Positions 1 through 41,316 of a DNA stretch of 64,000 nt are shown piece by piece. Origin of the DNA: Trueperaceae bacterium (GTDB lineage Bacteria; Deinococcota; Deinococci; Deinococcales; Trueperaceae); contig OZ243927.1 of NCBI GenBank assembly GCA_965213925.1, forward strand, positions 896,001 through 960,000, read 5' to 3'. Within the stretch, counting starts at the first letter, position 1. Every line of letters starts with the position of its first letter. Under the pieces are notes generated by a model that worked only from the letters and a program-made list of their open reading frames with translations, was not told where the DNA came from and made no database searches. The translations under genes were made by a program, and so were the position numbers.

Positions 1-390
1 TTGGTCGTGGACTCCGCCGTCTTTGGCCCCTTCTCCCGGGCTATACGGGGCGAATATCTTTTGGGGAGGGACGCGGTGAGCGGCGAATGGGGCTACAACA
101 ACGGCAACTACGGGGTACTCTATAATTTCCGGCTCCGCGCCCGAAACGACGCCCTGTTGGGCTTGTCCTACGCCTTGCTAATGCAACCTTCCGGCGGGTT
201 CGGGCATTACGCGGTGCAAACCCAGGGCGACGTCGTGACCTCCGCGTTTATCTCCTACAAAAACGCCTGGTGGTTCTACCGGGCACTCATTTTGGGACCT
301 GGAGGCAGTCTAACGCTCCGCGCCGGCCTCACGGGTGGCTCGTTTGGGCCGCAGAAGTTCTTTTTCGTACCCTATAGGCGCTTTGAGTGA
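1..390 (+). CDS. hypothetical protein, 3' part (runs off window start)
   Basis: Open frame from base 1 to TGA at 388-390; no family recognised. Confidence 0.6.
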   Translation: MVVDSAVFGPFSRAIRGEYLLGRDAVSGEWGYNNGNYGVLYNFRLRARNDALLGLSYALLMQPSGGFGHYAVQTQGDVVTSAFISYKNAWWFYRALILGPGGSLTLRAGLTGGSFGPQKFFFVPYRRFE

Positions 391-581
391 GCGGCTACAC
401 TAGCGGCTGGCGAGATGGGCTGTGAATACAGTGAGCCGACCTGAGGGCAGTGCAACAGAAAACCCTCTACACGCATAGAGATTTACGCATTAGACGCGCG
501 CATCACACGCACGAAGTCTATGCAAATCTCCGCCCGAACTCTGCCCCGGTACTTAGCTGAATACCGATTCCAGGCGGTGCC

Positions 582-1298
582 TCACTCAAGCTGACTCAGC
601 GTCATGACGTTCCTGATCTTTTCCAGGTGCGCCGCCTCGACCTCCAGCCAGCTTTCCTCACGTTCTCCGCCCTCGCGCAGCTCCGCCGCAGCGAAGCCCG
701 AGGGCTTTAGGTCGTCGATAAAAATGATGAGGAGCTCTTTGCGGCGGGCCGAGTCCGGGATATGAACGAGCCGCGCGTAGAAATACTCGTCAGGGTAGCT
801 GTAGCCTTTGCCAGCAAGGAACTTGCGCACGAGGTAGCCGTCCGTTCCTGGTGAGCCAAGCCGCCAGAACCTAACGTCAATGCCTGCTGCTGTGTCCGTA
901 TAGAAGTTGAGGCCGTCTATTTCGACTCGAAGCGGAGAGTCAGTGTAATCATAGGCGTAGTCGTTGCTAGGCAAAAAGCCTTCAAACTGCAGCCAGAAAA
1001 GGCTTTTCAAACTTCCGTCCGGATGCTCCTCGACGAAGAAATGCTGTTCAACATCAGCGGTGCCGTAGAGTTCGAACGTTTGACCGCCGATGTACTCGTA
1101 GTCTTCGTCAAACATCATGTTCATGGCGGGGTCGGCTCGCGAGGTAAGGGTACCGGCTGACACAGATTTTTCTAATTCGGCGAATTCAGGTGATGTCGTC
1201 AACCTACCGGGGTCTGTAAAGTAGAAGTAGATAGCGGCAGCAGCCACAGTGATGAGGGCGAGTCCGGCGGCGATCAGGATAATCCTCTTCATAAGCAC
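582..1298 (-). CDS. hypothetical membrane-anchored/secreted protein
   Basis: 238-aa ORF with N-terminal hydrophobic helix (MKRIILIAAGLALITVAAAAIYF). Confidence 0.75.
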   Translation of the reverse strand: MLMKRIILIAAGLALITVAAAAIYFYFTDPGRLTTSPEFAELEKSVSAGTLTSRADPAMNMMFDEDYEYIGGQTFELYGTADVEQHFFVEEHPDGSLKSLFWLQFEGFLPSNDYAYDYTDSPLRVEIDGLNFYTDTAAGIDVRFWRLGSPGTDGYLVRKFLAGKGYSYPDEYFYARLVHIPDSARRKELLIIFIDDLKPSGFAAAELREGGEREESWLEVEAAHLEKIRNVMTLSQLE

Positions 1299-1454
1299 AT
1301 TTACTATAAAGCCTTCGCCTATTCCTCAAGGACACAGTTGCGCGCGTTCGCCGCACAAAGGCTTGAGCTTCGAAAGGCCTGTGCTGCGATCACTGAGCTT
1401 GAAAGAGCAACTTCGAGCACCTCACTTTTCGCGCAAAGCTTGTGTCGCTCACGT

Positions 1455-3677
1455 CTATGGGGAGGTATACACCCAATTTAGAAGTGCGCCTTCAACGCCC
1501 CCCGACACCAGACTGTCGCCATCAGATGACCAATCAAGGGCGAGAGAGCCAAAATCACCGAACGTCGTTTGCTGATGCCCTTCCAACCCCGTAATTCTTT
1601 CACCGGTGGCTGCCACCCAAACATGCACGCCGTCGTCCGCCTTCGCTTCGTCATCGTAGGTTGAACCTGACGTGGCGAGCCGGTGACCGTCAGGGCTCCA
1701 CGCTAACTCGTCAATGCCGTAAGGCGCTTCGATTGTAGCTAATGTTTTCTCTGAAGTACTATCAATGATTTGAACTTTTCCGCTCGACCCGCCGACGGCG
1801 AGCCGCTGGCTGTCAGGACTCCAGGCGATAGTTTTCGGATCTCGGTCAATTGTGAACGTGTGCATAAGGCGGCTAGTTTCCGCGTCCCACACTTTGACCT
1901 CGTCATAGCCTCCTCCAGCGAGCTTTGTCCCATCAGGGCTCCACGCCAGAGTAAAAATAGGGCGATAGTCTTGAACCTCGAATGTTTTGAGTAAGCTACC
2001 TGTCGTCCCATCTCGCACCTTGATCGTGCCATCTTGACCCCCACTTGCCAATCTCGTGCCGTCCGGACTCCAGCCGACTGCGTATACCTCACCACGGTGC
2101 GCGTCAACCGAGAAGAGTTGTTTGCGCGTAGCCATATCCCAAATCTTTAGAGCGCCTTCGTTGTCCTGACCACTGGCGCTTGCTAATTTTGAACCGTCCG
2201 GGTGCCAAGCGATGGCGTGAACAAAAGTGTCAAGCTCCGCTAGTGTACCGAGGCTGCGCCCCGAGGCGGCCTCCCAAACCTTAACGGTTCCGTCGTAACC
2301 TCCGCTCGCTACCTTGCCTTCGTGCAATTTGACAGTGGCGACCCGAGCCGCGTGACCGTTCGACGACATGACCTTTTGTCCGCTCTCGGCGTTCCACACG
2401 CTAAACCAAGGGATGGTGTCGTCGGCCGCAAAACGGTCGCCGTCGGGGTGCCAGTCTGCTCCTAAGACCACTCGAGCCTTCCCTACGACGCGCAGCATTT
2501 CTCTGCCCGTAGCGGCGTCCCAGATTCTTAGTTCACCCTCAGTTCCACCCCCTAAGATGCGATTCGTATTGGGTTCCCAGGCTACGACCAGAGGTTGAAA
2601 GTAATCTTCGTCGTCATCTCTCAACAGGACGCGCACAGGCTGACCCGTGTCAGCGTCCCAGATCACGACCTTGCCGCCGTTGCCGCTACTCACAAACTGC
2701 GAGCTGTCGGCGTTCCAGTCGACGTCCCAGACCCCTCCGAAAACATCAATCTCATAGAGGTGTTCGCCGGTTTCTGCATTCCATACACTGATCGAACGGT
2801 CTCCACCTACGATCTTCTCGCCATCCTGACTCCACGCCACAGCGTTATAGGTGTAATTATCGAGGCTCCAAAGCTCCTGGCCGCTCGCTATGTCCCACAC
2901 CCGCAATAACGCGTCGCCGCAGCTAACAAGTTTAGTCCCATCCGGACTCCAAGCTATATCGGTGACTTCTTCTGTATGTCCGACTAGGTCGGCGACGACT
3001 TCGCCCGTTGCCACAGACCAAACTTTAAGGCTTCCGCCCTTAAACGGTGCACCCGAACCACTTGCCACGAAAAGTCCATCCGGACTAAATGCGACCGCTT
3101 CGGCTTTTGCCGAATAGGTGTCGGAATCGAAATGATCATCGAGAGTGAATTTTAGGCTTCCCGTGGTTGCGTCCCAAAGTTTGACCATGCCGTCTGCCCC
3201 GCTAGTCGCGAGCAACTGTCCAGTCGGGCTCCAATCTAAATAGCGGACCTCCGCTGTATGGCCTGCGCCGAGTTTCCAGGCTACGTTAGTAGAGGGTAAC
3301 TGCCCTTCAACTTCTATCTTGCGCGTCGCTTTCGAGGACGTGCTCTTTGCGGAAAGCGTATAAGTTGTCTCTCCAACCGACCAGACAGCAGCTTCGGATA
3401 AACCGCTGACGTCGCCTATATCTGGCTCGAGAGTGAGCGTCAGCGACTCATCGGGAACTTGCCAGCTCAGCTGTACAGCCTCTCCGGCGGGCACAGTGAG
3501 CGTGGAAGCGGTCAATGACGTGATTAAAGTGGGGTCTGTCTCGAGGTCGACCGGGTTGTTGCCGTCTTTTACCTCATGAGTACACGATACTAACAGAGCC
3601 AAACTAAGAAGGAGGGAGCCGACGAGCCGTCTTTGATAAAAAGCCCGCACGTTCAGGCTGCTGAAATAGCGTCTCAT
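1455..3677 (-). CDS. WD40-repeat lipoprotein (about 14 repeats, probably two beta-propellers)
   Basis: Repeated GH...VAWSPDG..LASG..DG.VK.WD units; lipobox LVSC; ATG at 3677 overlaps the upstream TGA (ATGA). Confidence 0.9.
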   Translation of the reverse strand: MRRYFSSLNVRAFYQRRLVGSLLLSLALLVSCTHEVKDGNNPVDLETDPTLITSLTASTLTVPAGEAVQLSWQVPDESLTLTLEPDIGDVSGLSEAAVWSVGETTYTLSAKSTSSKATRKIEVEGQLPSTNVAWKLGAGHTAEVRYLDWSPTGQLLATSGADGMVKLWDATTGSLKFTLDDHFDSDTYSAKAEAVAFSPDGLFVASGSGAPFKGGSLKVWSVATGEVVADLVGHTEEVTDIAWSPDGTKLVSCGDALLRVWDIASGQELWSLDNYTYNAVAWSQDGEKIVGGDRSISVWNAETGEHLYEIDVFGGVWDVDWNADSSQFVSSGNGGKVVIWDADTGQPVRVLLRDDDEDYFQPLVVAWEPNTNRILGGGTEGELRIWDAATGREMLRVVGKARVVLGADWHPDGDRFAADDTIPWFSVWNAESGQKVMSSNGHAARVATVKLHEGKVASGGYDGTVKVWEAASGRSLGTLAELDTFVHAIAWHPDGSKLASASGQDNEGALKIWDMATRKQLFSVDAHRGEVYAVGWSPDGTRLASGGQDGTIKVRDGTTGSLLKTFEVQDYRPIFTLAWSPDGTKLAGGGYDEVKVWDAETSRLMHTFTIDRDPKTIAWSPDSQRLAVGGSSGKVQIIDSTSEKTLATIEAPYGIDELAWSPDGHRLATSGSTYDDEAKADDGVHVWVAATGERITGLEGHQQTTFGDFGSLALDWSSDGDSLVSGGVEGALLNWVYTSP

Positions 3678-4797
3678 TTGAAGAAGAGGCTCCAAAGGAT
3701 AACTTCTGCTCCTCGGCTACCAGAGACGAGAAACTGGCCGTCCGAACTCCAATCAAGCGTGGTAACTGATCCGATATGACCTATAAGTGAAACAAGCTCT
3801 TGGCCGGTTATGGCGTTCCAGATTTGGACACTTTGGCCGTCGCCGCTGGCGGCGAGTTGAGTACCGTCAGGGCTCCAGCTAAGCCCATAGATAAAGCGGT
3901 TAACGTCTGAATATATAGTGAACGGCTCCGAAGGAGATATCAGGGTCCATACCTTAACCTTGGACGAGTCAAGCGTAGCGGCTAAACGCGTACCGTCAGG
4001 GCTCCAAGCCAAATTGTGCACGCTATCGTAAGTGTCAAGCCCTTTCAAGACAATTTCCTTGCTCGTCGCGACCTCCCAAACGCTAACGTCTCCCCACTGG
4101 TTGCCCGCTGCGAGAAAACGTCCATCTGGACTCCAGACGATGTCAGCGATGCGGCCGGAGATTCCAGAAAAAGACACGCCCTCAGTCCCGGTCGCAGCGT
4201 CCCAGGTCTTAATAGCGCCTATACCGCTGTCTTTTAATTCGCCTCCTGCCGAGCGGACGCCATCCGGCCCCCAGTCGATAATCGCTTCGTAGCTGCCTTC
4301 AATCGTAAGTTGAAGACCTCCAGATGTTACGTCCCAAGTCTTGAATCTAGCCACGCTACCTGTCCCAGCGCCAGGGACGATTTCATAATAAGCAGCTGTT
4401 GTAAAGGCGCTGCCATCAGGCTTCCAAGTTGCGTCATCGAAGCCTGGATAGCTATTGTCGGTGAGAGACGATAGTTTCGTTCCGGTTGTAGTCTGCCACA
4501 GGTAGGCAACACCATCACGGGCAACGCTTAAAACACGGCTGTTGTCTGGGCTGAAGGTTACGGCAGTCACCTCGTCTTGGTGCCCCGCCGCGAAGGTGGT
4601 AATGGTCAGATCCTTCGCAGCAGTGTCTGCATTCCATAGTCCAAGCGTGCCATCTGTGGCTCCTGTGAGAAGTTTAGTGCCCTCTGGATGCCAAGCAATG
4701 TCGGCTTCCCAGGAAGAAAGTCCCTCCGTCTCCTTAGCGCCCTTGAGTTCTCGCAGCGCAGACCCAGTTGAGGCATCAGCAAGAATGGCATGGAGAT
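3674..4797 (-). pseudogene. WD40-repeat protein, 5'-truncated
   Basis: WD40 frame continues upstream of ORF 3674-4570 (HAILADASTG...IAWHPEGTKLLTGATDGTLGLWNA) to about 4797, then switches to the antisense of cas5e sequence with no start codon. Confidence 0.7.
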
Positions 4798-5073
4798 CCC
4801 TAGCCGATCTATCTCGGTCGGCGTGGCTACTATCCGAGCGTCCCGCTGTTTGTCATTGACGGGCTGAAAAAGGCGAGTTTGGAGGAGGCTATCGCTACCT
4901 ATCCCCGTGTCCTAGCCGATAAAGCGGTGCGGTTCGCCGACTGCCACATCGAAGGCAAAGGCAAGGTCGTACACGACCAGCCCGTCAGCTTCGCCACTCA
5001 TACCTTCGGACCCCGGAGGGTCTACCACTGCTGCGTCAGCAAGTTAGGAGCATCATGTACGTCACCGAACTGA
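4798..5073 (+). pseudogene. cas5e: type I-E Cas5 (Cas5e/CasD), C-terminal fragment
   Basis: Frame reads P*PIYLGRRGYYPSVP...HDQPVSFATHTFGPRRV, matching the Cas5e P.wp.yLGR...Ps.P and D.P.sF...RrF..R.v motifs; overlaps the cas6e start; N-terminal half absent. Confidence 0.8.
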
Positions 5074-5723
5074 CCTTAAACCAGGACAACCTCTTCGCCA
5101 TGCGCGACGTCGCCGACCGCTACGAGACGCACCGCTCTGTGAAGCGCTTGACCGAAGGGATGGAGCGCAGGGTTTTGTGGCGGCTCGACATGCAGCGTGA
5201 ATGGCGGCTCACGGTTCAATGTGAGCGTCCGCTCGAGCCGCGCTATGTGTCCAAGGCGATGCCCGGATACGCCGATCAAGTCCGGAGCGCGGAGGTTGCT
5301 ACGAATTTCGACCCTGGCGACCTGCTCCTCTTCCAGCTCGAGGCGAACCCGACCGTGAAGTGTGCCAAAAAGCGGCGGGCGCTAAAGAGTATGGCTGAGC
5401 TACAGGAGTGGCTACAAAGGAAGTTTGATGATGCAGGTTGTGAACTCCTAGACTTTGCAATCTTGAAGCAGCAAGCGTTACGGTTATATCGCCAGAAGAG
5501 GCCAGATGAACAAGAAAATGACGACGAGAATGGGTGTAAGTACGCCATGTTCAACAGCGTCAGGTTCATGGGCAGCACTAAAGTAGTAGACCTTAAAGCG
5601 CTCAAAGATACGCTCGAGGCTGGCATCGGCAGCGCGAAGGGATATGGCTTTGGGTTGCTCTCATTGCGACCTATCCCTTACAGAGACATAGCTGGAGTTA
5701 AAGTCTCAAAAAGCGTGTGTTGA
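5055..5723 (+). CDS. cas6e: type I-E CRISPR endoribonuclease Cas6e (CasE/Cse3)
   Basis: MYVTELTL..Y.TH..LWR N-terminus, F.LEANPT, C-terminal G-loop GIGSAKGYGFGLL; RBS AGGAG upstream; array directly downstream. Confidence 0.93.
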   Translation: MYVTELTLNQDNLFAMRDVADRYETHRSVKRLTEGMERRVLWRLDMQREWRLTVQCERPLEPRYVSKAMPGYADQVRSAEVATNFDPGDLLLFQLEANPTVKCAKKRRALKSMAELQEWLQRKFDDAGCELLDFAILKQQALRLYRQKRPDEQENDDENGCKYAMFNSVRFMGSTKVVDLKALKDTLEAGIGSAKGYGFGLLSLRPIPYRDIAGVKVSKSVC

Positions 5724-5729
5724 TCGAGC

Positions 5730-5878
5730 CTTTTCCCCACTCGCGTGGGGGTGGCGCGGGCGACTGATGCGCCTCGCCCTACTCCTCGCCTTTTCCCCAC
5801 TCGCGTGGGGGTGGCGCGCAAACGGGCGCGGCGAAGGGCAAAGAGGGCATTCTTCCCCACATTGGTGGGGGCGGTACC
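5730..5878 (+). CRISPR. type I-E mini CRISPR array: 3 repeats (third atypical), 2 spacers
   Basis: CTTTTCCCCACTCGCGTGGGGGTGGCGCG at 5730-5758 and 5790-5818; diverged TTCTTCCCCACATTGGTGGGGGCGGTACC at 5850-5878; exact 60-bp period; CCCCAC/GTGGGG stem; spacers 5759-5789 and 5819-5849. Confidence 0.92.
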
Positions 5879-6048
5879 ATCAGCAGAGCAAATCAAAAGC
5901 GAAAGCTGGAGTAAGTCCAGTGCATCGCGGCGAATCGCCAAAATACATTGGACGGCTGATGTATAGAAATGTCGATATCCAAGACATTGGGCGCATGATG
6001 TTTGAAACTCTTGATTAGACGAGGACTTACAGGAAGGCGTAGCAACTC

Positions 6049-6711
6049 CTATGTTGCGACTGGATGTCGAATCTCTCCAATCATGAGTCCCATTACTATG
6101 CTCGATTGGAACCAGCAGAAATTCTCGTCAACAGGGGCACGAAGTACATCCGTGAAACGCAGGTCGTACCCGCAAATTACGCAACAGTGGAGTTCCTCTT
6201 CGTCACCTCTACCGATCACTATAGCGCTCCCATAGCTATCACACTCGGTGTGTAGAAAGTTCTTATGATGTACGCAAACGCTGCAAAAGCTATACATCCA
6301 CTCCCGCCGAAAGAAAGGTTGCGTGTCCTCGAGAAGGCAGCGCGGACAATATTGAGTTGTGACAATTGGTTTAGGAGTTTTCGTCTGACGTGGGCGGTGA
6401 GAAAGTAGCTCACGCGAGCGGACACTCGCGCTTTTAATGCGTACCCGTGTCGGCGCAAGCAGCGCTTCGATATCGCCCACTGCTTGACCCGTACCCCGAG
6501 CCAAAACCTCGACCACGCTTTCTAGCTGACTGCCCTTTCGGTCTCTTATCCCTTTAGGGATAAGAGACTTGAGCAGCTTTTTTCCACTCCGCTTCTCCAA
6601 CACCTTCCAAAATCTATCCCAAGCTAAGCCGTTGCTCACAGCCAACCTAGCAACCCAGGAAGCGAAACTCTCACCTTGAAACAGTGAAGCGTGATACAGC
6701 CACAAATCCAT
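6049..6711 (-). CDS. tniQ: TniQ family Tn7-like target-selector protein
   Basis: GESFASWVARLAVSNG N-terminal motif; QYCPRCL.ED..PFFRREW.....C..H...L...C zinc motifs; C-terminal CVICGYDL; ATG at 6711 follows a TACACT -10 box. Confidence 0.88.
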   Translation of the reverse strand: MDLWLYHASLFQGESFASWVARLAVSNGLAWDRFWKVLEKRSGKKLLKSLIPKGIRDRKGSQLESVVEVLARGTGQAVGDIEALLAPTRVRIKSASVRSRELLSHRPRQTKTPKPIVTTQYCPRCLLEDTQPFFRREWMYSFCSVCVHHKNFLHTECDSYGSAIVIGRGDEEELHCCVICGYDLRFTDVLRAPVDENFCWFQSSIVMGLMIGEIRHPVAT

Positions 6712-6832
6712 ATGACAGTGTAGCAAATAGAGCAGCTTTCTTCGAAAGGACTGAAGTTGTAAACCGCTTCGGAGATCGCCCGTATACAGCCACTTTGTGA
6801 TATTATGCAGATGTGCCCCGCCCGAGCCAGAG

Positions 6833-6880
6833 CGATTCTCAGTATTCTTTACCTATTCTCAAAATTCTTTGTTTCTGACA
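6833..6880 (-). mobile_element. putative Tn7-like transposon end
   Basis: Minus strand reads TGTCAGAA-ACAAAGAATTTTGAGAATAG-GTAAAGAATACTGAGAATCG: terminal TGT, 8 bp, then two 20-bp-period direct repeats AAAGAATnnTGAGAAT. Confidence 0.7.
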
Positions 6881-6924
6881 CACCTATTCGAATAGAGGCG
6901 ACTGCGGCGGATAGTTCGTAATCA

Positions 6925-6958
6925 TGACCTCTTTGCCCTTCGCCGCGCCCTCTTGCTT
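6925..6958 (-). other. protospacer (6925-6955) plus 5'-AAG PAM (6956-6958) matching spacer 2
   Basis: Target CAAGAGGGCGCGGCGAAGGGCAAAGAGGTCA vs spacer CAAACGGGCGCGGCGAAGGGCAAAGAGGGCA, 28/31 identical. Confidence 0.9.
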
Positions 6959-7192
6959 ATAGTTGTTCATCCCGTACTGAAGTTCCCAAGGGACGATGTG
7001 CGCAAATGAAAAGAGCGCCCTGACCTCTTCGCAATCGTCATAAGTGATGAGCCATTTGTGCTTCACCTTTTGCATCACGGCGGCAAAACGCTCGTGATCG
7101 AAGGTCGTGTGCAGCTTCCCTTTTTTGCCGTAGAGCTTTGACTTTGTAGCGGATAAATAGGGCGGGTCCAGGAAAATAAAGACGTTTTCGCC

Positions 7193-7380
7193 GCCTAACG
7201 CACCGGGAGACCCGGATGCTGCGGACCCTAAACCCGGATGCTGCGGACCCTAACGCACCGGGAGACCCGGATTTCGCCGGACCCTAACGCACCGGGAGAC
7301 CCGGATGCTGCGGACCCTAACGCACCGGGAGACCCGGATGCTGCGGACCCTAACGCACCGGGAGACCCGGATGCTGCGGA
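7193..7380. repeat. 33-bp tandem repeat, 6 units (33,22,34,33,33,33 bp)
   Basis: Unit CCCTAACGCACCGGGAGACCCGGATGCTGCGGA; encodes SAASGSPGALG on the minus strand. Confidence 0.95.
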
Positions 7381-8041
7381 TGGCGCTAAGACGACCTCTT
7401 CGTAGTCGAGATTGGTAATCTTGGTCCCTTCAAGAAGAGGGGCGACGCGCCGTAAACGCCCTATCGAGGACTGCGTGAAGCGCTTTTCAAATGCACCTTG
7501 CGAATAGCCGCCCGCTTCGACCGTGCCCGAAAAGGTGATGCGGTTGAGGAGAAAAAAGCGGATGGCTCTGTGTAAGGGTGCGTCGGGTACGTTATCGACC
7601 AATGAGCGGTGCAGCGTGCGTCCGTCTGTCACCGTATCTTTCTGCTGCTGCACGCCTTCGACGAGCGCCTCTGGGCAATCGCGTAGGTAAAGCCAGAAGT
7701 GGTAAAGCTCTGCGTTGAGGTCGCTAATCCAGAACGAGGCGTTTGGGTGTTGCTGCCGCAAAGCTAAAAAGACAGAGCCGCCCCCTATGAAGGGTTCGCG
7801 GAACTCGCTGAACGTTGGAACGAGCGGCAGGATGGTTTTAAGTGCTTTTGCCTTACCGCCTGGATACCTCAGCGGTGTTTTTACCGAAGTGAAAAGACCG
7901 TCTTGCATTGACGTGCATCGTATCAGTCAATCGTGCCAGCTACTACCTCGAGGTGCAGGGTTAGGACACTACACGGAACAGTCACGCGCGAATGTCGCCT
8001 GACAGGAACGTAAAATATTTCACTTTGCTAAACTACCTCTA

Positions 8042-9688: not shown

Positions 9689-11428
9689 ATGTCGAGAGCA
9701 CATAAATACGACGTGATTGTGATTGGCGCGGGCGGCTCAGGGTTGATGGCGGCGCGGTACGCGGCGCAGGAGCCCGGCGTGTCCGTCGCGGTCATCAGTA
9801 AACTTTACCCGACCCGCTCGCATACAGGGGCGGCGCAAGGGGGTGTGGGCGCAGCTTTAGGCAACGTCACCGACGACCACCCCGACTGGCACGCCTTCGA
9901 TACGGTCAAGGGTGGCGACTACCTAGCGGACCAAGACGTCGCGGAGATGTTCGCGTACGAAGTCGTCGAGGCAGTCTACGAGTTAGAGCACATGGGCTTG
10001 CCCTTCTCACGTACGCCTGAAGGCAAAATCGCCCAGCGTAAATTCGGTGGGCACACCCGCGAATTCGGCAAGAGCGCCGTCGAACGTGCCTGCTACGCGG
10101 CGGACCGCACGGGTCACATGATTTTGCAGACGCTCTATCAGCAGTCCATCAAGAACAACGTGACCTTTTTCAACGAGTTCCACGTGCTCGACATGATCAT
10201 GGAAGCCGGTGAGTGTCGCGGCGTGGTGGCGTACGAGCTTGCCACGGGCGAGCTTCACACCTTCCAGGCGAAAGCCACGATTGTCGCCACCGGCGGCAAC
10301 GGGCGCATGTTCAAAGTGACCTCGAACGCGCACGCCTTGACGGGCGACATGATGAGCGTCGTCTACCGGCGCGGCATCCCGATTGAAGACCCCGAGTTTT
10401 ACCAGTTCCACCCGACGGGTCTCTACAAAATTGGCGTTTTACTGACTGAGGGCGCAAGAGGTGAAGGTGGGATTTTGCGTAATAGCGAGGGCGAGCGCTT
10501 TATGGAGCGTTACGCGCCTTCCATCAAGGACTTAGCGCCGCGGGACATGGTCTCGAGGGCGATGTACCTAGAGATGCGCGAAGGGCGCGGCACCGGACCC
10601 GACGCCGACTACATCCACCTCGACCTCACCCACATCGACGATCACATCATCGAGACGCGCCTCCCCGATATCACCGAGTTCGCCCGGATTTACCTAGGCG
10701 TTGACCCCTTAAACGAGCCCGTCCCCGTGCAACCCACCGCGCACTACGCGATGGGTGGCATCCCCACGACCATCGACACCGAAGTCATCATGGACGGCGA
10801 CAACGCCGTCGTGCCAGGGCTCTACGCCGCAGGTGAAACAGCGTGCGCCTCGCTGCACGGCGCGAACCGCCTCGGCACAAACTCGTTAGGCGACCTCATC
10901 GTGTTCGGACGCCGCGCGGGTATCTTCGCTGCTCGTTACGCCGCGGGAGCGGAGTACGGCAAGCTGCCTTTAGACGCGCAAGACTTTGCTAAGAGCCAAC
11001 TCGACACCGCGCTGAACGGCTCTGGTAAGGAGCGCGTGAGCCGCATTCGTAAAGAGATGCAAAACACCATGATGGACAACGCCTCGGTCTTCCGCACTGA
11101 AGAGACCCTGTGTACGCAGATCGAAAAGCTCAGAGAACTCAAAGAGCGCTATAAAGGCATCGGCGTTGAGGACAAGGGCGAGCAGTTCAACACGGAGCTG
11201 ATGGAAGCGATTGAACTCGGCTTCCTTTTAGACAACGCCGAGCACCTCGTCCACGCGGCGTATAACCGCAAGGAATCGCGCGGCGCGCACTCCCGCGAGG
11301 ACTACAAGGAGCGCAACGACGACGAGTGGCTCAAGCACACGCTCGTCTATAAAGACGGCGACGGCGTGCGCATCGACTATAAACCCGTAACCTTGGGCAA
11401 GTACGAGCCTAAGCCGAGAGTTTATTAA
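9689..11428 (+). CDS. sdhA: succinate dehydrogenase flavoprotein
   Basis: [19 protein letters not shown]-His motif, HGANRLG. Confidence 0.97.
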
Positions 11429-11514
11429 GCAACTCAGCGTCTCAGCTAGTCAGCATTTCAGGTCTTTCCTGACTAGCTGACTAGCTGACCGGCTGAAATG
11501 CTATAAGGATTTTT

Positions 11515-12237
11515 ATGAACGCAGACGCAATGAAACCCAGAGAAATCAACGTCAAGATCAAGCGCTTTAACCCCGAAGAGGACAAGCGACCTTATTGGGC
11601 GGAGTACAAAGTCGAAGCGCGACCGACTGACCGCGTGTTAGACGTGCTCCACGAGATTAAATGGGAAATCGACGGCACGCTCTCCTTCCGCCGGAGCTGC
11701 GCGCACGGCATCTGCGGCTCGGACGCGATGCTTATCAACGGCGTGAACCGCTTAGCGTGCAAGATTTTGGTCAAGGATTTGGGCGATGACATCTCGGTTG
11801 AGCCGATTCGCGGGCTCGAGGTGCTTAAAGACATGGTTGTCGACATGGAGCCCTTCTTCGACTCCTACAAAGCGGTGCTGCCCTACTTCATCAACGACGA
11901 CGCCCCGCCCACCACCGAGCGCTACCAGAGCCCCGAAGACCGCGAAGTGTTCGACGACACGACCAAGTGCATCCTCTGCGCGGCGTGCACGACCTCTTGC
12001 CCGATCTTCTGGACGAACGGCTCGTACTTGGGTCCAGCGGCGATCGTTAACGCGCACCGCTTCATCTTCGATTCACGTGACAGCGGCACTACCGAGCGTT
12101 TAGAGGTGCTCAATCAGGCCAACGGCTTGTGGCGCTGCCGCACCGCATATAACTGCACGCAGGCGTGCCCGCGCGGGATTCCGGTGACGCAAGCGATTGA
12201 AGAGGTTAAGAAGGAGTTGTTGTGGCGCAGAGCGTAA
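11515..12237 (+). CDS. sdhB: succinate dehydrogenase Fe-S subunit
   Basis: SCAHGICGSD, CILCAACTTSCP, CRTAYNCTQACP. Confidence 0.97.
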   Translation: MNADAMKPREINVKIKRFNPEEDKRPYWAEYKVEARPTDRVLDVLHEIKWEIDGTLSFRRSCAHGICGSDAMLINGVNRLACKILVKDLGDDISVEPIRGLEVLKDMVVDMEPFFDSYKAVLPYFINDDAPPTTERYQSPEDREVFDDTTKCILCAACTTSCPIFWTNGSYLGPAAIVNAHRFIFDSRDSGTTERLEVLNQANGLWRCRTAYNCTQACPRGIPVTQAIEEVKKELLWRRA

Positions 12238-12262
12238 GCTTCTCAGTTCAGTAGTAAGTTAG

Positions 12263-12287
12263 AAGAGGTGCAAGAAAAGCACCTCTT
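12263..12287. terminator. hairpin between convergent sdhB and ridA, likely terminator
   Basis: AAGAGGTGC-aagaaaa-GCACCTCTT. Confidence 0.6.
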
Positions 12288-12308
12288 TACTATTTCCTCA
12301 AGACCCAC

Positions 12309-12692
12309 TCAACCAGAAACTAGCGCCACCGCCTCAATCTCAATCAGCACGTCTTTCGGCAGCCGCGCCACCTCCACCGCGCTCCGCGCAGGCGGCTCAC
12401 TCTCAAAGAAACGTCCGTAGACCTCATTCACCGTACTGAAATCCGCCATGTCTTTCAAGAAGCAGGTGCATTTTATGGTGTTGACGAGGCTCGAGCCCCC
12501 CGCCTCCAGCACCGCCTGAAGATTCTTCATCACCTGCTCGGTTTGCGCCGCAACGTCACCCTCTAAAAGGTCTCCATTAGGCAAGAGTGCAATCTGCCCT
12601 GAGGTGAAGAGCAAGTCGCCGACGCGCACCGCTTGAGAGTAAGGACCGATAGCGGCGGGCGCGTTGTCTGTGGAGATAACTGTTTTATTCAT
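12309..12692 (-). CDS. ridA: RidA/YjgF enamine deaminase
   Basis: APAAIGPYSQAV, PARSAVEV..LP...IEIE. Confidence 0.93.
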   Translation of the reverse strand: MNKTVISTDNAPAAIGPYSQAVRVGDLLFTSGQIALLPNGDLLEGDVAAQTEQVMKNLQAVLEAGGSSLVNTIKCTCFLKDMADFSTVNEVYGRFFESEPPARSAVEVARLPKDVLIEIEAVALVSG

Positions 12693-12720
12693 AGCGCTAC
12701 CTTAACGTACTCGAGGACTG

Positions 12721-12797
12721 AGAGAAAAGGACTGTTACGAAGTTTTCGCAGAGCGAAAGGACTGAGTAAAAGCTTTTCTCTCAGCACTCAGTCCTTT
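12721..12797. repeat. dispersed palindromic repeat (second copy at 36263-36341)
   Basis: Shared AGAGAAAAGGACTGTTACGAAGTTTT...AAAGGACTGAG...GCTTTTCTCTCAG..CTCAGTCCTTT. Confidence 0.8.
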
Positions 12798-12807
12798 AAC
12801 CTCGCTT

Positions 12808-13839
12808 CTACCTTAAACTAAAATACAAAAACAGCACAAAAAGATAGATACAACCTAAAATCCACACGCGGTACGGGTACCAGGTTTGGCGGCGCAGCTT
12901 ATCTAAGCGGCGGCGTGACGGGTACGCCTCCTCAACTTTGTAAATGCCGCTCATCGTCTCGCCGATGTTCACAGATGAAGCTTCTTCTTTGGGCAAGTCG
13001 TAGCGCTTGGGCTTGGGCTCGACGGTTTCGGCGAAGAGGACGACGGCGGTCACGTTATCGGGGCTGCCGCGTTCGTTGGCGTTTTCTATGAGTTTTGCGG
13101 CGGCGTCTTCGGGCGCGTGCTCGCTCAAAATCTGTAGAATCACCTCGTCGGAGAGGAGCGTGGTGACGCCGTCGCTGCAGAGCATGAGCTTGTCGCCCGA
13201 GTGCACCTCGAAGTGGAAGATGTCGAGCTTGAATTCGGGGGTGGAGCCTAGCGCGTTGGTGATGATGTTGCGCCAGCGGTGATGCCGCGCCTCCTCCTCG
13301 CTGAGGAGCCCTTGGCGCACCCTGTCGGCGACCCAGGAGTGGTCTTGGGTGAGTTGGTGGATTTCGCCGTTACGAACCAGATAGGCCCTCGAGTCCCCCA
13401 CATGCCCCACCAACCCGACTTGGTCATCCACTAAAAGCGTCGTCAGCGTCGTGCCCATACCGCGACTTTCGGGGTGCTCGGTCGCGTAGTCATAAATCTC
13501 TAAGTTGGCATCTTGCACTGCCCTGGCAATTGCCGCAGGTGGATGCGCCTGCGCCTTCTTTAGGGTGCGGCTCAGCACCTTGACCGCGCTCTGGCTGGCG
13601 ATTTCGCCCGACTGGTGTCCGCCCATCCCGTCCGCGACGATGGCCAGGACGCCTTGCGGCGTCGTGTCCACAAAATAGGTGTCTTGGTTGACCTTGCGCA
13701 CCTCGCCCGCCTCGCTCTGACCCGCAAAGTGGATGCGCGTCGCGGCGAGTTGCCCCTTCGATTGCGGCTTAGTTTGAGGCTTAGCCTCAAACGCCGCTTC
13801 AGCATCTTTCTTTTTCGCTCGGGAGGGTGCAGACTTCAT
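12808..13839 (-). CDS. PP2C-type Ser/Thr phosphatase (Stp1/PrpC-like) with C-terminal TM helix
   Basis: R..NQD, VADGMGG, HVGDSRAY, LCSDG, DNVT. Confidence 0.93.
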   Translation of the reverse strand: MKSAPSRAKKKDAEAAFEAKPQTKPQSKGQLAATRIHFAGQSEAGEVRKVNQDTYFVDTTPQGVLAIVADGMGGHQSGEIASQSAVKVLSRTLKKAQAHPPAAIARAVQDANLEIYDYATEHPESRGMGTTLTTLLVDDQVGLVGHVGDSRAYLVRNGEIHQLTQDHSWVADRVRQGLLSEEEARHHRWRNIITNALGSTPEFKLDIFHFEVHSGDKLMLCSDGVTTLLSDEVILQILSEHAPEDAAAKLIENANERGSPDNVTAVVLFAETVEPKPKRYDLPKEEASSVNIGETMSGIYKVEEAYPSRRRLDKLRRQTWYPYRVWILGCIYLFVLFLYFSLR

Positions 13840-14113
13840 GAAGGTCGATTATACATCGGCTACCCGGCAGCGTTGCGTAAATCTCTATTAGTGGCGCGCG
13901 AGTACGTTCGCCGAGGGCAAAAGTGAGGGATAAAACGAGGCGAATGCTGGTGAACTGTGGGCAAATTGGGGGACGTTATTCAGAAACGTTCTCGTAGCGT
14001 ACGAACACCATCTACTGATGCCTAGTTCTTCACCCCTTTTCACGCCAGGTGCCTCATTGACGGGTACTTTAACGACTTCGTGACCCCTGACTCTCATACG
14101 GTATGCTGTCAAG

Positions 14114-15574
14114 ATGAAGTTTGCTCATCAAATTGCGGAAGAGGTCCGCTCTAGGCAGGTCAGTGCGGAAGAGGTCGTGCGAGCGGCGCTCGAGCGTGCC
14201 GAGCGCGTACAGCGGGACCTCAATGCGTTTCTTACAATCTCCTATGACGCGGCACTTGAAAAGGCTCGAGCCCTAGACCAAAAACTAGCGTCAGGAGAAG
14301 ACATTGGACCTCTTGCGGGTGTCCCTATAGCGGTCAAAGACAACATCTGCACCGCAGGCATTCGCACGACGGCGGGGTCGAAAAGTTTAGGGACCTTCGT
14401 ACCGCCTTACAGTGCGACGGTGGTGGCGCGGCTCGAGGCGGCGGGCGCAATCGTGATTGCGAAGACGAACCTCGATGAATTCGGGATGGGAGGCTCGAGC
14501 GAAAACTCGGCGTATGGGGCGATGAGAAATCCCTGGAACCCGTTAAGAGTCCCCGGCGGCTCCTCGGGCGGCTCCGCCATCGCCGTTTCAGCGGGCGTCG
14601 TGCCGCTCGCGCTCGGCACCGATACGGGCGGCTCGGTGCGTCAGCCTGCAGCGTACACGGGGCTGATTGGCTTTAAGCCGACGTACGGCAGATTGCCACG
14701 TTACGGCGTAGTGGCGTTTGCGAGTTCGCTCGACCAAATCGGCGTCTTATGCCGCTCGTCGCAAGATTTGGCGTTGACGATGGACGCCGCGAGCGGTCAC
14801 GACCCCTGCGACGCGACGAGTTTAGAGGCCGCGCCCGCTTTTATGGCGGGGCTCGAGACCTGGACCTCTTTAGAAGGGCTGCGCGTCGGTATCATTCAAG
14901 AGCTTTCCGGTGAAGGTAACAGCGAGGGCGTCCGAGCGGCGCTAGAATGCACCGCAGAAACCCTGACCTCGTTAGGCGCAACGGTAGGCGAAGCCTCTAT
15001 CCCTAACGCGCCGCACGGCATCGCCGCATACTACCTCGTCGGGCCCGCTGAGGCGTCCGCCAACTTAGCCCGCTTCGACGCCATGCTCTATAGCGAGCGT
15101 TCGGGCGAGAACCGTTTAGGACAAGCTGAGGTGATGATGCGCTCGAGGGGTAAAAATTTCGGACCCGAGGTGCGCCGCCGCATCCTGATGGGCACCTACG
15201 CGCTTTCGGCAGGCTACTACGACGCCTACTACGGCAAAGCGCTCAAGGTGCGCCAGCTTATCGCGGACGATTTTGCCAGGGCCTTCGAAGATTTCGACCT
15301 ACTCATGACGCCGACCACGCCGAGCACCGCGTACGAGCTAGGCAAGAAGTCAGACGACCCGCTCGCAATGTACTTAGATGATATTGATACGGTCCTTGCA
15401 AATCTCGTAGGCACCGGAGCAATCAGTGTCCCGGCGGGTACGGTAGACGGTTTGCCTTGCGGCGTGCAGCTTTTCGCGCCCGCCTTAGAGGATGAGAAGT
15501 TGGTCGCGGTAGCGCAGAGGCTCGAGCAAGCAGCGGGGGAAACCTTTTCCCCAGTCGCTCCTGACTACGTCTAA
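14114..15574 (+). CDS. gatA: Asp/Glu-tRNA amidotransferase subunit A
   Basis: Amidase signature GGSSGGS, GTDTGGSVRQPA; EVRRRILMGTYALSAGYYDAYY. Confidence 0.96.
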   Translation: MKFAHQIAEEVRSRQVSAEEVVRAALERAERVQRDLNAFLTISYDAALEKARALDQKLASGEDIGPLAGVPIAVKDNICTAGIRTTAGSKSLGTFVPPYSATVVARLEAAGAIVIAKTNLDEFGMGGSSENSAYGAMRNPWNPLRVPGGSSGGSAIAVSAGVVPLALGTDTGGSVRQPAAYTGLIGFKPTYGRLPRYGVVAFASSLDQIGVLCRSSQDLALTMDAASGHDPCDATSLEAAPAFMAGLETWTSLEGLRVGIIQELSGEGNSEGVRAALECTAETLTSLGATVGEASIPNAPHGIAAYYLVGPAEASANLARFDAMLYSERSGENRLGQAEVMMRSRGKNFGPEVRRRILMGTYALSAGYYDAYYGKALKVRQLIADDFARAFEDFDLLMTPTTPSTAYELGKKSDDPLAMYLDDIDTVLANLVGTGAISVPAGTVDGLPCGVQLFAPALEDEKLVAVAQRLEQAAGETFSPVAPDYV

Positions 15575-15827
15575 ATGATACGTCTAAGTAAGAGGTCAAA
15601 TTCAGTCGCGTTTGAGCTGTTGATGACAGCTTCGGTGATGAAGAGGGCTCAAGCCTCCAATGATTGCGCCCGCTACGCCCAAACTGTTATAGTCGTCTCA
15701 TCAAACGATAGTAGGTAAGGGCTCAGCGTCAACCGTTTTACTGGGTGGGGCTCTTTTTGAAGTCATTGCGCCATTTATCGCTGCCTGATAGCAGACCTAC
15801 CACCGTTTCGAAAGGAAGAGGTGAAGG

Positions 15828-17125
15828 ATGAAGAGGTTCATTTTAGGGTTGCTCTCGCTGAGCCTGGTGTTCGGCGCGGCGCAGGCGCAAACGACGATCC
15901 GCTTTTCGGGGGGCGCGTCGGGTCCGGGGCTCGAGACCGAGCGCCAATTGGCCCAGATGTACATGGAGCAAAACCCGGACGTCACGGTCGAGGTGCTCCC
16001 CGGTCCCGACTCCTCGGACGAGCGTTTTTCTCTGTACCTCCAGCTCTTCGAGGCGCAGTCCGCCGACTTCGACGTGTTACAGCTCGACATCATCTGGCCC
16101 GGTCAGCTCGCGCAGCACCTCGTAGACTTGAATCAATACGGCGACATCCAGAGTTCGACCAGCGAGTTCTTCCCGGCCATCGTCGAGGCGAACACGGTGG
16201 ACGACAAGCTCGTCGCGATCCCTTGGTTCACCGACGCCGGGCTGCTCTACTACCGCACCGACCTCCTGGAGCAGTACGGCTTTGGCGGTCCGCCCGAGAC
16301 TTGGGCGGAGCTTGAAGAGATGTCCACCGCCATCCAAGAGGGTGAGCGCCAGAACAACCAAGACTTTAGCGCCTTTGTGTGGCAGGGTCAGTCTTACGAG
16401 GGGCTCACCTGCGACGCTCTGGAGTGGATCAACTCGGCGGGCGGCGGACAGATTATCAGCCCCGAGCAGGTTATTACGGTCTTCAACCCGAACGCGGTGG
16501 ATATGATAGCCCGCGCCGCAAGTTGGGTCGGCAACATCTCGCCTACAGGCGTCACGGGCTTTCAAGAGGAGGACGCGCGCAACTTCTTCCAGCCGGCAAC
16601 GCCGCGTTTATGCGTAACTGGCCCTACGCCTACAGCATCATGAACGCCGACGACAGCCCTATTTCGGGCAACTTCGACGTGGTGCCGCTGCCCCACATCG
16701 AGGGTAACAATTCCGCCGCCGCCTTGGGCGGCTGGAACTTAGGCGTGTCGCGCTACAGCCAAAACCCTGAGGTTGCCGCCGACGTCGCCGCGTTTTTCGC
16801 CTCACCCGACGCGCAGAAGCTCCGCGCGGTCGAGGGCAGCTTTATCCCGACGCGCCCCGCTCTGTTCGAAGACCAAGAGGTCTTGGAGGCGCAACCCTTC
16901 TTCGGACGTCTTTTGGACGTCTTTACGGGCGCCGTAGCGCGCCCTTCTGCGCCGACGGGTCAGCAGTACAACGAGGTCTCGAGGGCCTTCTACACCGCCG
17001 TCCACAACGTGCTCACAGGCGAGGAACAAGCGGAGATCGCCCTGGAGATTCTCGAGCTTGACCTCCAAGACATCACCGGCTTCGAAGTCGGCGACCCGCA
17101 GACGCAGACGGGTTCGACTCAGTAG
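15828..17125 (+). pseudogene. sugar (trehalose/maltose-type) ABC substrate-binding protein, one-base frameshift near 16592
   Basis: Signal peptide, DIIWPG, YEGLTC in frame 1; GNAAFMRNWPYA...RP in frame 2; could be a sequencing indel. Confidence 0.8.
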
Positions 17126-31904: not shown

Positions 31905-31993
31905 CGAAAAGGGCGAGAGGTTGCTCTCTCGCCTAGAATGACCATCACCAAAATGACCATCACAAAATGACCATCAATCGTCAAGTCAAGAGG

Positions 31994-39684: not shown

Positions 39685-41316
39685 CTAAGCCTGCAGCCTA
39701 GCAAAGCGAGACACCCGCGTCTGCTCAGGCTTGATGTCTTCGAACCAGTCCGCTAGCCTCTGAAAATTGATCGCCGCGGCAGTGGCGACGTTTTGCAGGT
39801 GGTTTTTCCTTAGGCTAATGTAGCGGCTCTTCCTTAACCCTGTCGCTCTCACCCCTTGCGAGAAGGTGCCCTCGATCCCGGCTCGGCGGTCGTAGCGCCG
39901 TTTCCATTCGCGCGTCCCCTTCTCCTCGCGGTACTTCGTGAGCACCTCGTGCTGCGCCTCTGGCCTGAAACGCAGCTTACGCGAGTTCGTCGGTGACTCG
40001 TTTATACAGCTGCGGCTAGCGCTACAGGCTCGGCAGTCGCCCCGCGCGAACTTCGTGGTGATCACCTCCTGGCCCTTGAGTTCGAAGACGCTCCACTTGC
40101 CGCTCCTTTTCCCCATTGGGCAGATGGCAACACGTTTCTCCCAATCCAGAGTGAAGTCTTTAAGGGCGAAACCCGACTTGGCTTGGGCATGGGTGTTGGG
40201 TTTCAGGGGACCGATGAGTTCCAAACCTAGCTCCTTCTTACAAGCCACGACCAGGTCCGAGTTGAGGTAGCCGCCGTCAACGAAATGTTCACGTGGTAAC
40301 AGCGCCCGCTCCTCTAACGCTTCGTGGATAGATTCCAGCTGGCCTATATCAGAAAGGGCAGGCTCGGTCGTCTCAACGTGAGTGATGAGGTGCGGCGAGC
40401 CGTCGTCGCAGGTCTCGGTGTAGTGGACCTTGTAGCCGATCCAGTCGAGGGCACCCTTCTTGCCGTAGTGCGCCTTGGGGTCGTAGGGAGAGTCGAGCCG
40501 CTCAGCCGCGGGCTGCAAGTTGCCCTTCTCGCGCCACTTAACCTCGCCGCCGATGACCTCGTACTGCCCTACCCAGCAGCGGCGCAGCAGCTCGACCTCC
40601 GGCAGCTTAATAAGGGAACCCAAGCCGGAGTCGTAAACCGAGCGCAGCAACCGGAAGCCGTCGCGCCCGATCTGCTCGGCGAGCTCTCGCTCCTTCTCTA
40701 CGCCCCTAGGCACCCGTTCCTTCTCAAAGCGTTTCGCGTAACGCTTGTACCAATCCTCTTCGACCTGCGTCCTCAACCATTTAGGGGCAACCACCGCGAG
40801 CCGGTTTAAGGTCGTGCGTAAGGTCTCACCAGCGACCTCGAGGCGGTTGAGCCTGCGCACGCCCGCTAAAATGTGGGTGGAGTCGGTTCTAGCTTTGCCG
40901 CAGGATTTGAGCAACTTAGCCGACCTGCACGTCTCAATCAGCTTATCGAGCAGCAGATGCTCGGCGTCTCCTTCCAGCAGGCGGCTGCGGAAGCGCGACA
41001 AAATGGAATAGTGGAAGCCGGGATCATCCAACTCCAACCCTAGAAGGTATTTCAGATCAATACGCCCCCTCACCGCGTCGGCAGCTTGCCTGTCCGAGAG
41101 CCCCTCGGCGAACTGCACGACCGTGACCAGAGCTAAGCGCCAGGGCGCTTCGGCGGGTTGTCCTACTGCCGGAAAGAGGTGGGCGAAGGTCTCGTCTGTG
41201 AAGAGCGTGCAGAGGTTATCGCGCAGAGTGAGGTAGCGGTTGCCTTTGGGGAAGGCAGCTTGGGCTATGCGAACAGTTGCGGCAGGGATTGGCAAGTCCG
41301 TCTGGGGTCTAAGCAT
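39685..41316 (-). CDS. IS1182 family transposase
   Basis: LSDRQAADAVR.RID.KY.LGL, RTDSTH, SPYDP.A, GYKVH.TE, VD.GY, Y.RRAG.EGT. Confidence 0.93.
   Translation of the reverse strand: MLRPQTDLPIPAATVRIAQAAFPKGNRYLTLRDNLCTLFTDETFAHLFPAVGQPAEAPWRLALVTVVQFAEGLSDRQAADAVRGRIDLKYLLGLELDDPGFHYSILSRFRSRLLEGDAEHLLLDKLIETCRSAKLLKSCGKARTDSTHILAGVRRLNRLEVAGETLRTTLNRLAVVAPKWLRTQVEEDWYKRYAKRFEKERVPRGVEKERELAEQIGRDGFRLLRSVYDSGLGSLIKLPEVELLRRCWVGQYEVIGGEVKWREKGNLQPAAERLDSPYDPKAHYGKKGALDWIGYKVHYTETCDDGSPHLITHVETTEPALSDIGQLESIHEALEERALLPREHFVDGGYLNSDLVVACKKELGLELIGPLKPNTHAQAKSGFALKDFTLDWEKRVAICPMGKRSGKWSVFELKGQEVITTKFARGDCRACSASRSCINESPTNSRKLRFRPEAQHEVLTKYREEKGTREWKRRYDRRAGIEGTFSQGVRATGLRKSRYISLRKNHLQNVATAAAINFQRLADWFEDIKPEQTRVSRFARLQA

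Follow-up and report, generated by a model that had tools for sequence, protein, structure and literature searches.

We analysed a 64,000-nucleotide (nt) stretch of contig OZ243927.1 from a Trueperaceae bacterium (positions 896,001 to 960,000 of the forward strand; hereafter the window, in whose own numbering all coordinates are given), in which a gene for the type I-E protein Cas6e, a short CRISPR array and a gene for the target selector TniQ lie beside a gene for a Dam-family DNA adenine methylase (Table 1). The second and last spacer of the array matches the 3' part of the methylase gene. We read this spacer, with a probability that we put at about two in three, as the homing guide of a CRISPR-associated transposon (CAST) that combined a type I-E effector module with a TniQ selector. 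The element in the window would be a dead stump proximal to the attachment (att) site, the fossil of a probable unreported CAST variant.

The array consists of three 29-nt repeats and two spacers with a period of 60 nt. It begins 6 bp past the stop codon of cas6e, and neither a leader nor cas1-cas2 stands ahead of it. Each of the three repeats folds into a 7-bp stem with a 4-nt loop, which is the geometry given for type I-E repeats in a section of PMC11300857. The changes that set repeat 3 apart from the other two avoid the hairpin: 10 of its 29 positions differ, yet none of these is among the 14 stem positions (hypergeometric P 1.5e-4), and this pattern points to selection for the hairpin, not to decay.

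The match of spacer 2 to the minus strand of the methylase gene, reported in a first-pass annotation of this DNA, was borne out, with 28 of 31 bases in agreement, mismatches at spacer positions 4, 5 and 29, and, on the spacer-like strand, the trinucleotide AAG directly 5' of the target, the place of a protospacer-adjacent motif (PAM). When one base is added on each side the complementarity extends to 30 of 33 positions (91%; 5818-5850 against 6924-6956). The G of the AAG and the base that closes the repeat pair in register, which is the trace expected of normal type I-E acquisition. With up to 3 mismatches allowed, spacer 2 has one further match in the window, namely this one, and dinucleotide-preserving shuffles (n = 100) gave a mean of 0.00 matches; the match is real and not a product of chance. 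The same annotation had suggested a comparison of spacer 2 with phages and plasmids, and that comparison left the local match unrivalled: the phage and plasmid records (collections poor in relatives of the host) gave nothing better than E 0.02, and none of the matches listed for the two spacers lay within a methylase gene. Spacer 1 matched nothing in the window, and among phages and plasmids no match to it was better than E 0.2; its target was presumably mobile DNA.

Table 1. Features of the cas6e-array-tniQ locus and of the adjoining methylase gene (window coordinates).
Feature	Position	Strand	Remarks
Probable deletion joint	4723..4804		WD40 homology (minus) abuts Cas5e homology (plus), both without 5' parts
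cas5e remnant, last 89 codons	4804..5073	+	overlaps the cas6e start, as in canonical I-E operons
cas6e (CasE/Cse3), 222 amino acids, apparently intact	5055..5723	+	PF08798, E 3.6e-34
Repeat 1	5730-5758	+	29 nt
Spacer 1	5759-5789	+	31 nt
Repeat 2	5790-5818	+	29 nt, identical to repeat 1
Spacer 2, last spacer, putative homing guide	5819-5849	+	31 nt, 28/31 match to 6925-6955 minus strand
Repeat 3, atypical	5850-5878	+	29 nt, 10/29 bases unlike repeats 1 and 2
tniQ	5893..6711	-	convergent with array; PF06527, E 2.3e-17; PADLOC TniQ, E 7.6e-19
Two tandem 20-bp units AAAGAATnnnGAGAATnnnn	6831..6870	-	candidate transposase-binding sites; both exact to motif
Candidate transposon terminus	6878..6883	-	5'-TGT at 6882-6880 or 6880-6878, 1-3 bp past the methylase stop
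Dam-family (D12 class) DNA adenine methylase, putative attachment gene	6884..7908	-	stop 6886-6884; frame broken at 7210-7380
Protospacer (6955-6925) with AAG PAM (6958-6956)	6925..6958	-	within YGMNNYKQxxAAKGKE motif of the methylase

The methylase was assigned through Pfam PF02086, which matched the N-terminal part (E 1.9e-20) and the C-terminal part (E 1.4e-11) separately; the DPPY motif can be read in the C-terminal piece. The family model TIGR00571 scored 62.6 and 26.6 bits on the two pieces, below its cut-off of 114.85, because the gene is split. The break lies within a 33-nt tandem repeat (7210-7380) in the loop before DPPY (4.5 copies at 93% match, together with a 22-nt variant), which in frame codes for SAASGSPGALG, and it is a 34-nt and a 22-nt unit that break the frame. 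Copies of the 33-nt unit number 0 (P0155-P0158), 1 (P0154) or 2 (P0153) at the same place in close relatives, and by this variation the repeat is a variable-number coding minisatellite. The C-terminus of the methylase (...SPLFE-stop) is intact and the relative P0155 has the same ending; judged on these sequences, the stop codon is native.

The protospacer lies 38 bp ahead of that stop codon, within the last 24 codons, where the 3' part of the gene codes for ...KQEGAAKGKEV.... This segment belongs to a motif, YGMNNYKQxxAAKGKE[L/V/I], that is strongly conserved at the protein level. Residues of the motif were counted in the last 115 residues of 119 methylase relatives, of which 96 were parsable; the G and the E were invariant among these 96, the A was present in 93 and the Q in 85. 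Spacer mismatches 4 and 5 fall in one codon (GAG, Glu), which varies more than any other position of the motif (E in 24 of the relatives, K in 22, G in 12, A in 8, D in 8 and other residues in the rest). Mismatch 29 would place Gly where all 96 parsed relatives have Leu, Val or Ile. The proposal of the first-pass annotation that the spacer came from another allele of this methylase family thus holds in part: the seed-side mismatches sit where alleles vary most, but the QTG that the spacer would encode was read in 0 of the 119 relatives, and the Gly at position 29 occurs in none of those parsed.

The target as it stands in the window, KQEGAAKGKEV, is identical to that of the relative P0157. Neutral drift of the three mismatches in place is unlikely because repeats 1 and 2 are identical; by our own arithmetic, a drift of 3/31 per site with 58 repeat bases left unchanged has a chance of about 0.003. 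The sequences fit a history in which at least the seed-side mismatches are older than the arrival of the element and the guide was shaped on another allele.

The PAM lies on the far side of the target, so that the PAM-distal end of the protospacer faces the cas6e-array-tniQ block. On that side, just past the methylase stop, a candidate TGT end lies 43 or 45 nt from the PAM-distal protospacer end. Read inward on the minus strand from the methylase stop, the sequence is GTGTGTCAGAAAC, followed by two tandem 20-bp units of AAAGAATnnnGAGAATnnnn, which could be transposase-binding sites; the 20-bp motif has one match elsewhere in the window, at 2 mismatches. A promoter-like TTGAGA-16-GAGAAT (6862-6835), facing tniQ, overlaps the two units. 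A transposon end near 6880 is treated here as a candidate. No inverted copy of the 20-bp motif and no inverted end were found in positions 1-7000 or in the rest of the window, and no second element end, target-site duplication or empty site was seen; the other end was presumably lost with the deletion described below or lies off the window. An inverted pair at 3100-3121 and 6880-6901 (77%), its first member being inside the WD40 gene, was taken as chance. A search of 4500-7500 with Rfam returned no family at E up to 1.

The tniQ gene is placed between the array and the candidate element end, with 172 bp separating its start from the methylase stop. An in-frame TAG at 6049-6051 (TGG to TAG) cuts its product to 220 amino acids (aa), against 272 aa in the intact relative P0002; the relative P0004 reads ...HPVAAWELLRLP... 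at this place, with Trp where the window has the stop. Past the TAG the frame continues to the annotated end and matches residues 223-268 of P0002 (54% identity, E 9e-14), ending, at full length, 15 bp from repeat 3. We modelled the structure of P0002 from a 60-sequence alignment (predicted local distance difference test, pLDDT, 79; predicted template modelling score, pTM, 0.76). When the model was compared with PDB folds, each of the 20 rows listed, down to rank 22, was a chain of TniQ or TnsD, the sources being Tn7 and CASTs of types V-K, I-B and I-F3. The small TniQ of type V-K is covered by the model's N-terminal two thirds (template modelling score, TM, 0.67-0.78 on the target's length), and the model has an additional C-terminal helical part (helices 196-269), most of which the TAG in the window removes. 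Searching PDB sequences with TniQ yielded weak matches in the zinc-finger region to I-F3 TniQ (best E 0.006), and the ESM Atlas placed the protein among generic TniQ clusters.

On the other side of the array, Cas6e scored 66.9 bits against TIGR01907 (cut-off 45.2). It carries the GIGSAKGYGFGLLSL motif and a His that is invariant in all 8 aligned sequences, a residue that we take to be at the catalytic-His position of the E. coli and Thermus CasE proteins. The window protein also has a 13-residue acidic insertion at residues ~160-172, PDEQENDDENGCK, which is absent from P0273, from P0274 and from more distant CasE proteins. Both Cas6e and the 29-nt repeat with its 7-bp stem and 4-nt loop are type I-E features of the locus.

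The one other cas gene found is the cas5e stump. It matched PF09704 below the cut-off (E 0.0023, over positions 138-217 of the 217-position profile) and the PADLOC Cas5e model with E 0.0012 (positions 144-227 of 230), and it is 35% identical to residues 130-208 of the 224-aa Cas5e of Ideonella (pairwise E 7e-10). The homology starts at the first residue of the 4804 frame, and about 130 codons are gone. A giant all-WD40 gene occupies the minus strand at 1455-4852, with ~1100 codons of blades and a frame break near 3674-3695. Its frame is open from 4852 down and its first start codon is a GTG at 4570, with none above the first blades; the start-less 94 aa gave weak PF00400 matches (E 2e-4, below cut-off). 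By this arrangement the WD40 gene looks like a 5'-truncated pseudogene joined to the cas5e stump. Because the two genes abut head to head and each lacks its 5' part, the interval between them is probably a deletion joint that fused the two stumps.

We scanned 64 window open reading frames (ORFs), comprising, in 1-22 kb, 22 of the 52 listed with 80 aa or more and, in 22-64 kb, 42 of the 61 with 110 aa or more, the rest overlapping longer ORFs; all statements below on genes missing from the window refer to this set. No cas7, cas8, cse2, cas3, cas1, cas2, tnsA, tnsB or tnsC was found. The locus thus has neither a full Cascade (CRISPR-associated complex for antiviral defence) set of cas8e, cse2, cas7e and cas5e with cas3, nor cas1e-cas2e between cas6e and the array, nor the core CAST genes tnsB and tnsC, with or without tnsA. 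The CAST features that it does hold are a TniQ linked to a cas and array module and an atypical, stem-keeping repeat that bounds spacer 2. A working CAST in the window, which the first-pass annotation implies, is not supported, given the truncated cas5e, the premature TAG in tniQ and the missing transposase, cas7, cas8 and cse2. The same two lesions, a cut cas5e and a tniQ with a nonsense codon, led us to reject a further idea, that cas6e, array and tniQ form a deliberate minimal module that uses host proteins.

Some of the frameshifts in the window could be assembly errors, because other genes in it are split as well (the WD40 gene and the gene for a solute-binding protein). The break in tniQ is a base substitution and the truncation of cas5e is a loss of 130 codons, and as read from the assembly both are set against such an explanation.

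The Cas6e and TniQ clades were then followed beyond the window. With TniQ as the query, a HMMER search of the whole library returned 821 proteins with an E of 0.001 or lower; of these, 12 had 1e-10 or lower and 2 had 1e-30 or lower. Its close relatives are P0002 (56% identity, contig of 5,838,999 bp), P0003 and P0004 (two pieces, 7,077 bp) and P0005 (756 bp). For Cas6e, the close relatives are P0274 (58%, 5,838,999 bp), P0275 (87%, 7,077 bp), P0273 (60%, 6,508 bp) and P0272 (89%, 952 bp), after which the next best is 33% identical. If contigs of the same size are taken as the same contig, those of 5,838,999 and 7,077 bp hold both clades, at similar divergence. The two clades therefore appear to be rare and to travel together, in the sense of co-occurrence and not of proven adjacency. 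The 7,077-bp contig has TniQ in two pieces and a Cas6e with an unrelated tail past residue ~110; it may represent the same fossil, carried by a sister lineage, or reflect poor assembly. Both genes are full-length in the 5.84-Mb genome (TniQ 272 aa, Cas6e 202 aa).

Plasmids held nothing as close: by tblastn, TniQ reached at most 32% identity among the 15 matches listed, and Cas6e at most 36%, its best match being a canonical I-E locus. A profile scan of genome contigs with the TniQ alignment gave 45 candidate stretches, one of them a relative, a 25%-identical TniQ of Sphaerisporangium. The corresponding Sphaerisporangium viridialbum stretch (9911-16212) has two TniQ genes that flank a 708-aa ORF without a Pfam match and a TniB/TnsC-like ATPase; this Tn7-like gene row lies a few kb from a Tn3-family transposase, and no cas family was found among the 17 ORFs scanned there out of 60 listed of at least 120 aa.

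Among known systems the locus resembles most closely the I-F3 CASTs, exemplified by Tn6677 of Vibrio cholerae and the I-F3b elements of Aeromonas. These likewise combine TniQ with a type I module lacking Cas3 and Cas1/2 and with a very short array. According to the passages on guide use in 10.1101/2020.07.02.184150, I-F3 elements carry their chromosome-directed guide without exception as the final spacer, flanked by atypical repeats in which the stem is preserved; its protospacer is found at a gene end, some 48 bp away from the end of the element, with insertion just outside the frame; and there is tolerance of mismatches, a working Aeromonas example having ten. For the distance from protospacer to end, 42-46 bp is given in the relevant part of PMC11300857. 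The window would share the last-spacer guide, the atypical stem-keeping repeat, the gene-end target some 45-48 bp away from the end of the element and the tolerance of mismatches, so far as these are described in the sources. It differs from I-F3 in that its module is of type I-E (Cas6e, Cas5e, 29-nt repeat) and not I-F, and in that tniQ is short (the 272-aa form), converges on the array and lies beside the att-proximal end, where I-F3 elements have tnsA, their tniQ standing in a tniQ-cas8-cas7-cas6 operon. The putative attachment gene also differs, being a Dam-family methylase and not guaC, yciA, ffs or rsmJ, which agrees with the first-pass annotation's description of a Dam-like methylase as an unusual attachment gene; moreover, no transposase genes are seen at the window locus.

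The 2025 classification (PMC12669027), in the part that concerns transposons, lists CASTs derived from I-F3, I-B2, I-D, I-C, IV-A and, with Mu, I-A, together with one I-E variant, I-E5, which is without TniQ-TnsD. As outlined in portions of 10.1101/2024.11.13.623437, I-E5 is a telomeric TnsBC element of Streptomyces in which tnsBC replace cas1-2 in the operon, Cas3 is intact, the arrays lie upstream of cas3 and the account given has no protospacer beside the element end. The window locus is also derived from I-E and is also without cas1-cas2. Unlike I-E5 as there portrayed, it has TniQ, an array after cas6e and a protospacer beside the candidate end, and it lacks cas3, tnsB and tnsC; it does not belong to I-E5. 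A metagenomic survey (10.1101/2021.08.16.456562) describes, in its section on such loci, Cas3-less I-E Cascades beside Rpn-like nucleases, without TniQ. The term I-E is absent from the main text of a survey of Tn7 target selectors (PMC10293859), and our literature search found no report of a TniQ-linked I-E CAST.

Canonical I-E systems, such as those of E. coli, Thermus and a plasmid of Ideonella dechloratans, share with the window the homology of Cas6e and Cas5e, the overlap of cas5e with cas6e, a 29-nt hairpin repeat ending in CG and the AAG PAM. The Ideonella locus continues from cas6e to cas1e and cas2e and then to 70 repeats of 29 nt with a 61-nt period, whereas the window has 2 spacers at a period of 60 nt, is without cas3, cas8e, cse2, cas7e, cas1e and cas2e, and has a Cas6e that does not exceed the 36% identity noted above to any Cas6e in the plasmid collection. 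Tn7 offers another parallel: as in its TnsD-directed insertion downstream of glmS, a conserved coding 3' segment would be recognised, insertion would fall beyond the stop and the host gene would be spared. Unlike in Tn7, recognition would be by a guide RNA and not by the TnsD protein, and the target gene is neither essential nor universal.

The description of spacer 2 as a homing spacer, first offered in the earlier annotation, survives these comparisons in part. It is the last spacer, it has an AAG-flanked target at the end of a gene, the orientation is right, the bounding repeat is atypical and a candidate end lies 43-45 bp away; what does not survive is a working CAST around it. The array, with 2 spacers directly after cas6e and no cas1e or cas2e, is by its layout CAST-like and not defence-like. 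We lean slightly towards the more specific identification of the element as a TniQ-dependent, Tn7-like CAST with a type I-E Cascade, a capture separate from that of I-E5, with its homing site at the 3' end of a gene for a Dam-family methylase and an apparently intact copy in the 5.84-Mb genome; it would be the first such element to be seen.

By analogy with I-F3, I-B and I-D CASTs, the element in its active state may have worked as follows. The cas operon and the array would be co-transcribed and Cas6e would cleave the repeats; the last guide, bounded by the diverged, hairpin-keeping repeat, would load a nuclease-free I-E Cascade, which would bind the AAG-flanked, protein-constrained motif ahead of the methylase stop. 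TniQ would dock on the PAM-distal (Cas6e) end of Cascade, and a TnsC/TnsB-type machinery would insert the element some 43-45 bp beyond the target, shortly after the stop codon, with the consequence that the host methylase gene stays whole. A later deletion would have joined cas5e and the WD40 gene at their middles and removed everything upstream, and the Trp-to-stop change in tniQ may have come after or before it. What the data show is the match, its PAM and orientation, the identities of the genes and their breaks, and the rarity and co-occurrence of the two protein clades; the transposon end, the transposase partners, the docking and any insertion driven by the guide are inferred.

Several observations weigh against the homing-guide reading. 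Membership among CASTs is unproven, neither transposase genes nor two ends being seen in the window, and tnsA, tnsB, tnsC, cas7e, cse2 and cas8e are all missing from the ORFs scanned. The 20-bp motif occurs at one end and can equally be read as a promoter, and the second end, the target-site duplication and the empty site were not seen. The allele that the spacer would encode was met in none of the 119 relatives, and its position 29 implies Gly at a Leu/Val/Ile site. The E. coli Cascade seed comprises positions 1-5, 7 and 8, so that mismatches 4 and 5 fall within a region that is seed in that complex. Present-day binding, which the first-pass annotation thought these mismatches may weaken, would thus be poor if this Cascade resembled that of E. 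coli; the argument has no bearing on a dead element. All three mismatches are at paired guide positions, none of them being on the sixth positions (6, 12, 18, 24 and 30) that are exempt under the every-sixth-base rule given for type I guides in the above-mentioned part of 10.1101/2020.07.02.184150. Beyond the window, Cas6e and TniQ would be adjacent only as far as equal contig sizes indicate, and the contig scan with TniQ yielded one distant TniQ and no related locus for comparison. Dam-family methylases, finally, are not universal and are common on mobile DNA, and a defence spacer could cross-match one.

This last point underlies the strongest of the alternatives, which we nevertheless consider improbable: the locus would be an ordinary I-E defence remnant whose spacer 2 was taken from a mobile Dam-family methylase gene and cross-matches the chromosomal homologue, and tniQ would stem from an unrelated element. 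The methylases are indeed widespread (2360 matches at E up to 0.001), the conserved motif makes a cross-match conceivable, the match is imperfect, and the AAG with the matching last repeat base is what normal I-E acquisition leaves behind. Set against this, the sole good match lies 1.1 kb off, correctly oriented and suitably spaced from the candidate end, and the phage and plasmid searches described above produced no better source and, among the matches listed, none in a methylase gene. Nor would a defence remnant account well for a 2-spacer array straight after cas6e without cas1/cas2, for a repeat 3 that retains its stem, or for Cas6e and TniQ clades that occur together on three contigs, the window included.

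Still less probable, in our view, is an autoimmune accident, in which an active I-E system took up a spacer from its own neighbouring DNA and the locus then decayed to escape self-cleavage. Self-targeting is known to lead to the loss of cas genes, and the truncated cas operon and the mismatches at PAM-proximal positions 4 and 5 would suit such a history. Escape changes, however, would be expected in the target; the differences are on the side of the spacer and not of the target, which reads as in P0157, and the identity of repeats 1 and 2 indicates little drift. An accident of this kind would also leave tniQ, the absent cas1/2, the hairpin of repeat 3 and the co-occurrence of the two clades unexplained. 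The regulatory role raised in the first-pass annotation, in which a Cas3-less Cascade on the methylase gene would lower its expression, is the least probable of all, for although the match and the PAM are real and no cas3 was found, nothing else speaks for it: the site is 24 codons from the stop and not at a promoter, the guide pairs with the template strand, which is the weaker choice for a block within a gene, the Cascade genes are missing, and the methylase gene is already frameshifted.

If the homing-guide reading is true, a TniQ-linked I-E CAST would represent one more case in which a transposon independently captured a CRISPR effector. The type I-E Cascade is structurally and biochemically the best understood, so the reading of a completed R-loop by TniQ would become directly testable. 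A methylase landing site would widen the range of attachment genes and extend the rule of protein-constrained gene ends to accessory genes, and the window would be a natural example of such an element dying in place. Its main value would lie in pointing to an unreported lineage of TniQ-linked type I-E CASTs with an apparently intact member.

The rest of the window resembles ordinary chromosome, with sdh genes, an amidase, an amylase, trp genes and thrS. The SdhB protein shares a cluster at 90% identity with Truepera radiovictrix, and by this one protein the host probably belongs to the Deinococcota. Two ORFs, 582-1298 (minus) and 1-390 (plus), matched nothing in Pfam, NCBIfam or PADLOC and may not be genes; in the ESM Atlas, where recognition was below the usual level, they gave unnamed clusters only, and 582-1298 gave nothing. 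The solute-binding protein gene mentioned above (SBP_bac_1, 15828-17125) is present as two overlapping ORFs, through a frameshift or an assembly error. The only transposase found in the window is an insertion sequence (IS)-type DDE transposase of 543 aa at 39685-41316 (minus; DDE_Tnp_1_6 and DUF772), which is unrelated to Tn7. Short 14-nt tandem repeats occur at 31937-31976 and 32789-32820, one just upstream of a major facilitator superfamily (MFS) transporter gene and one inside it.

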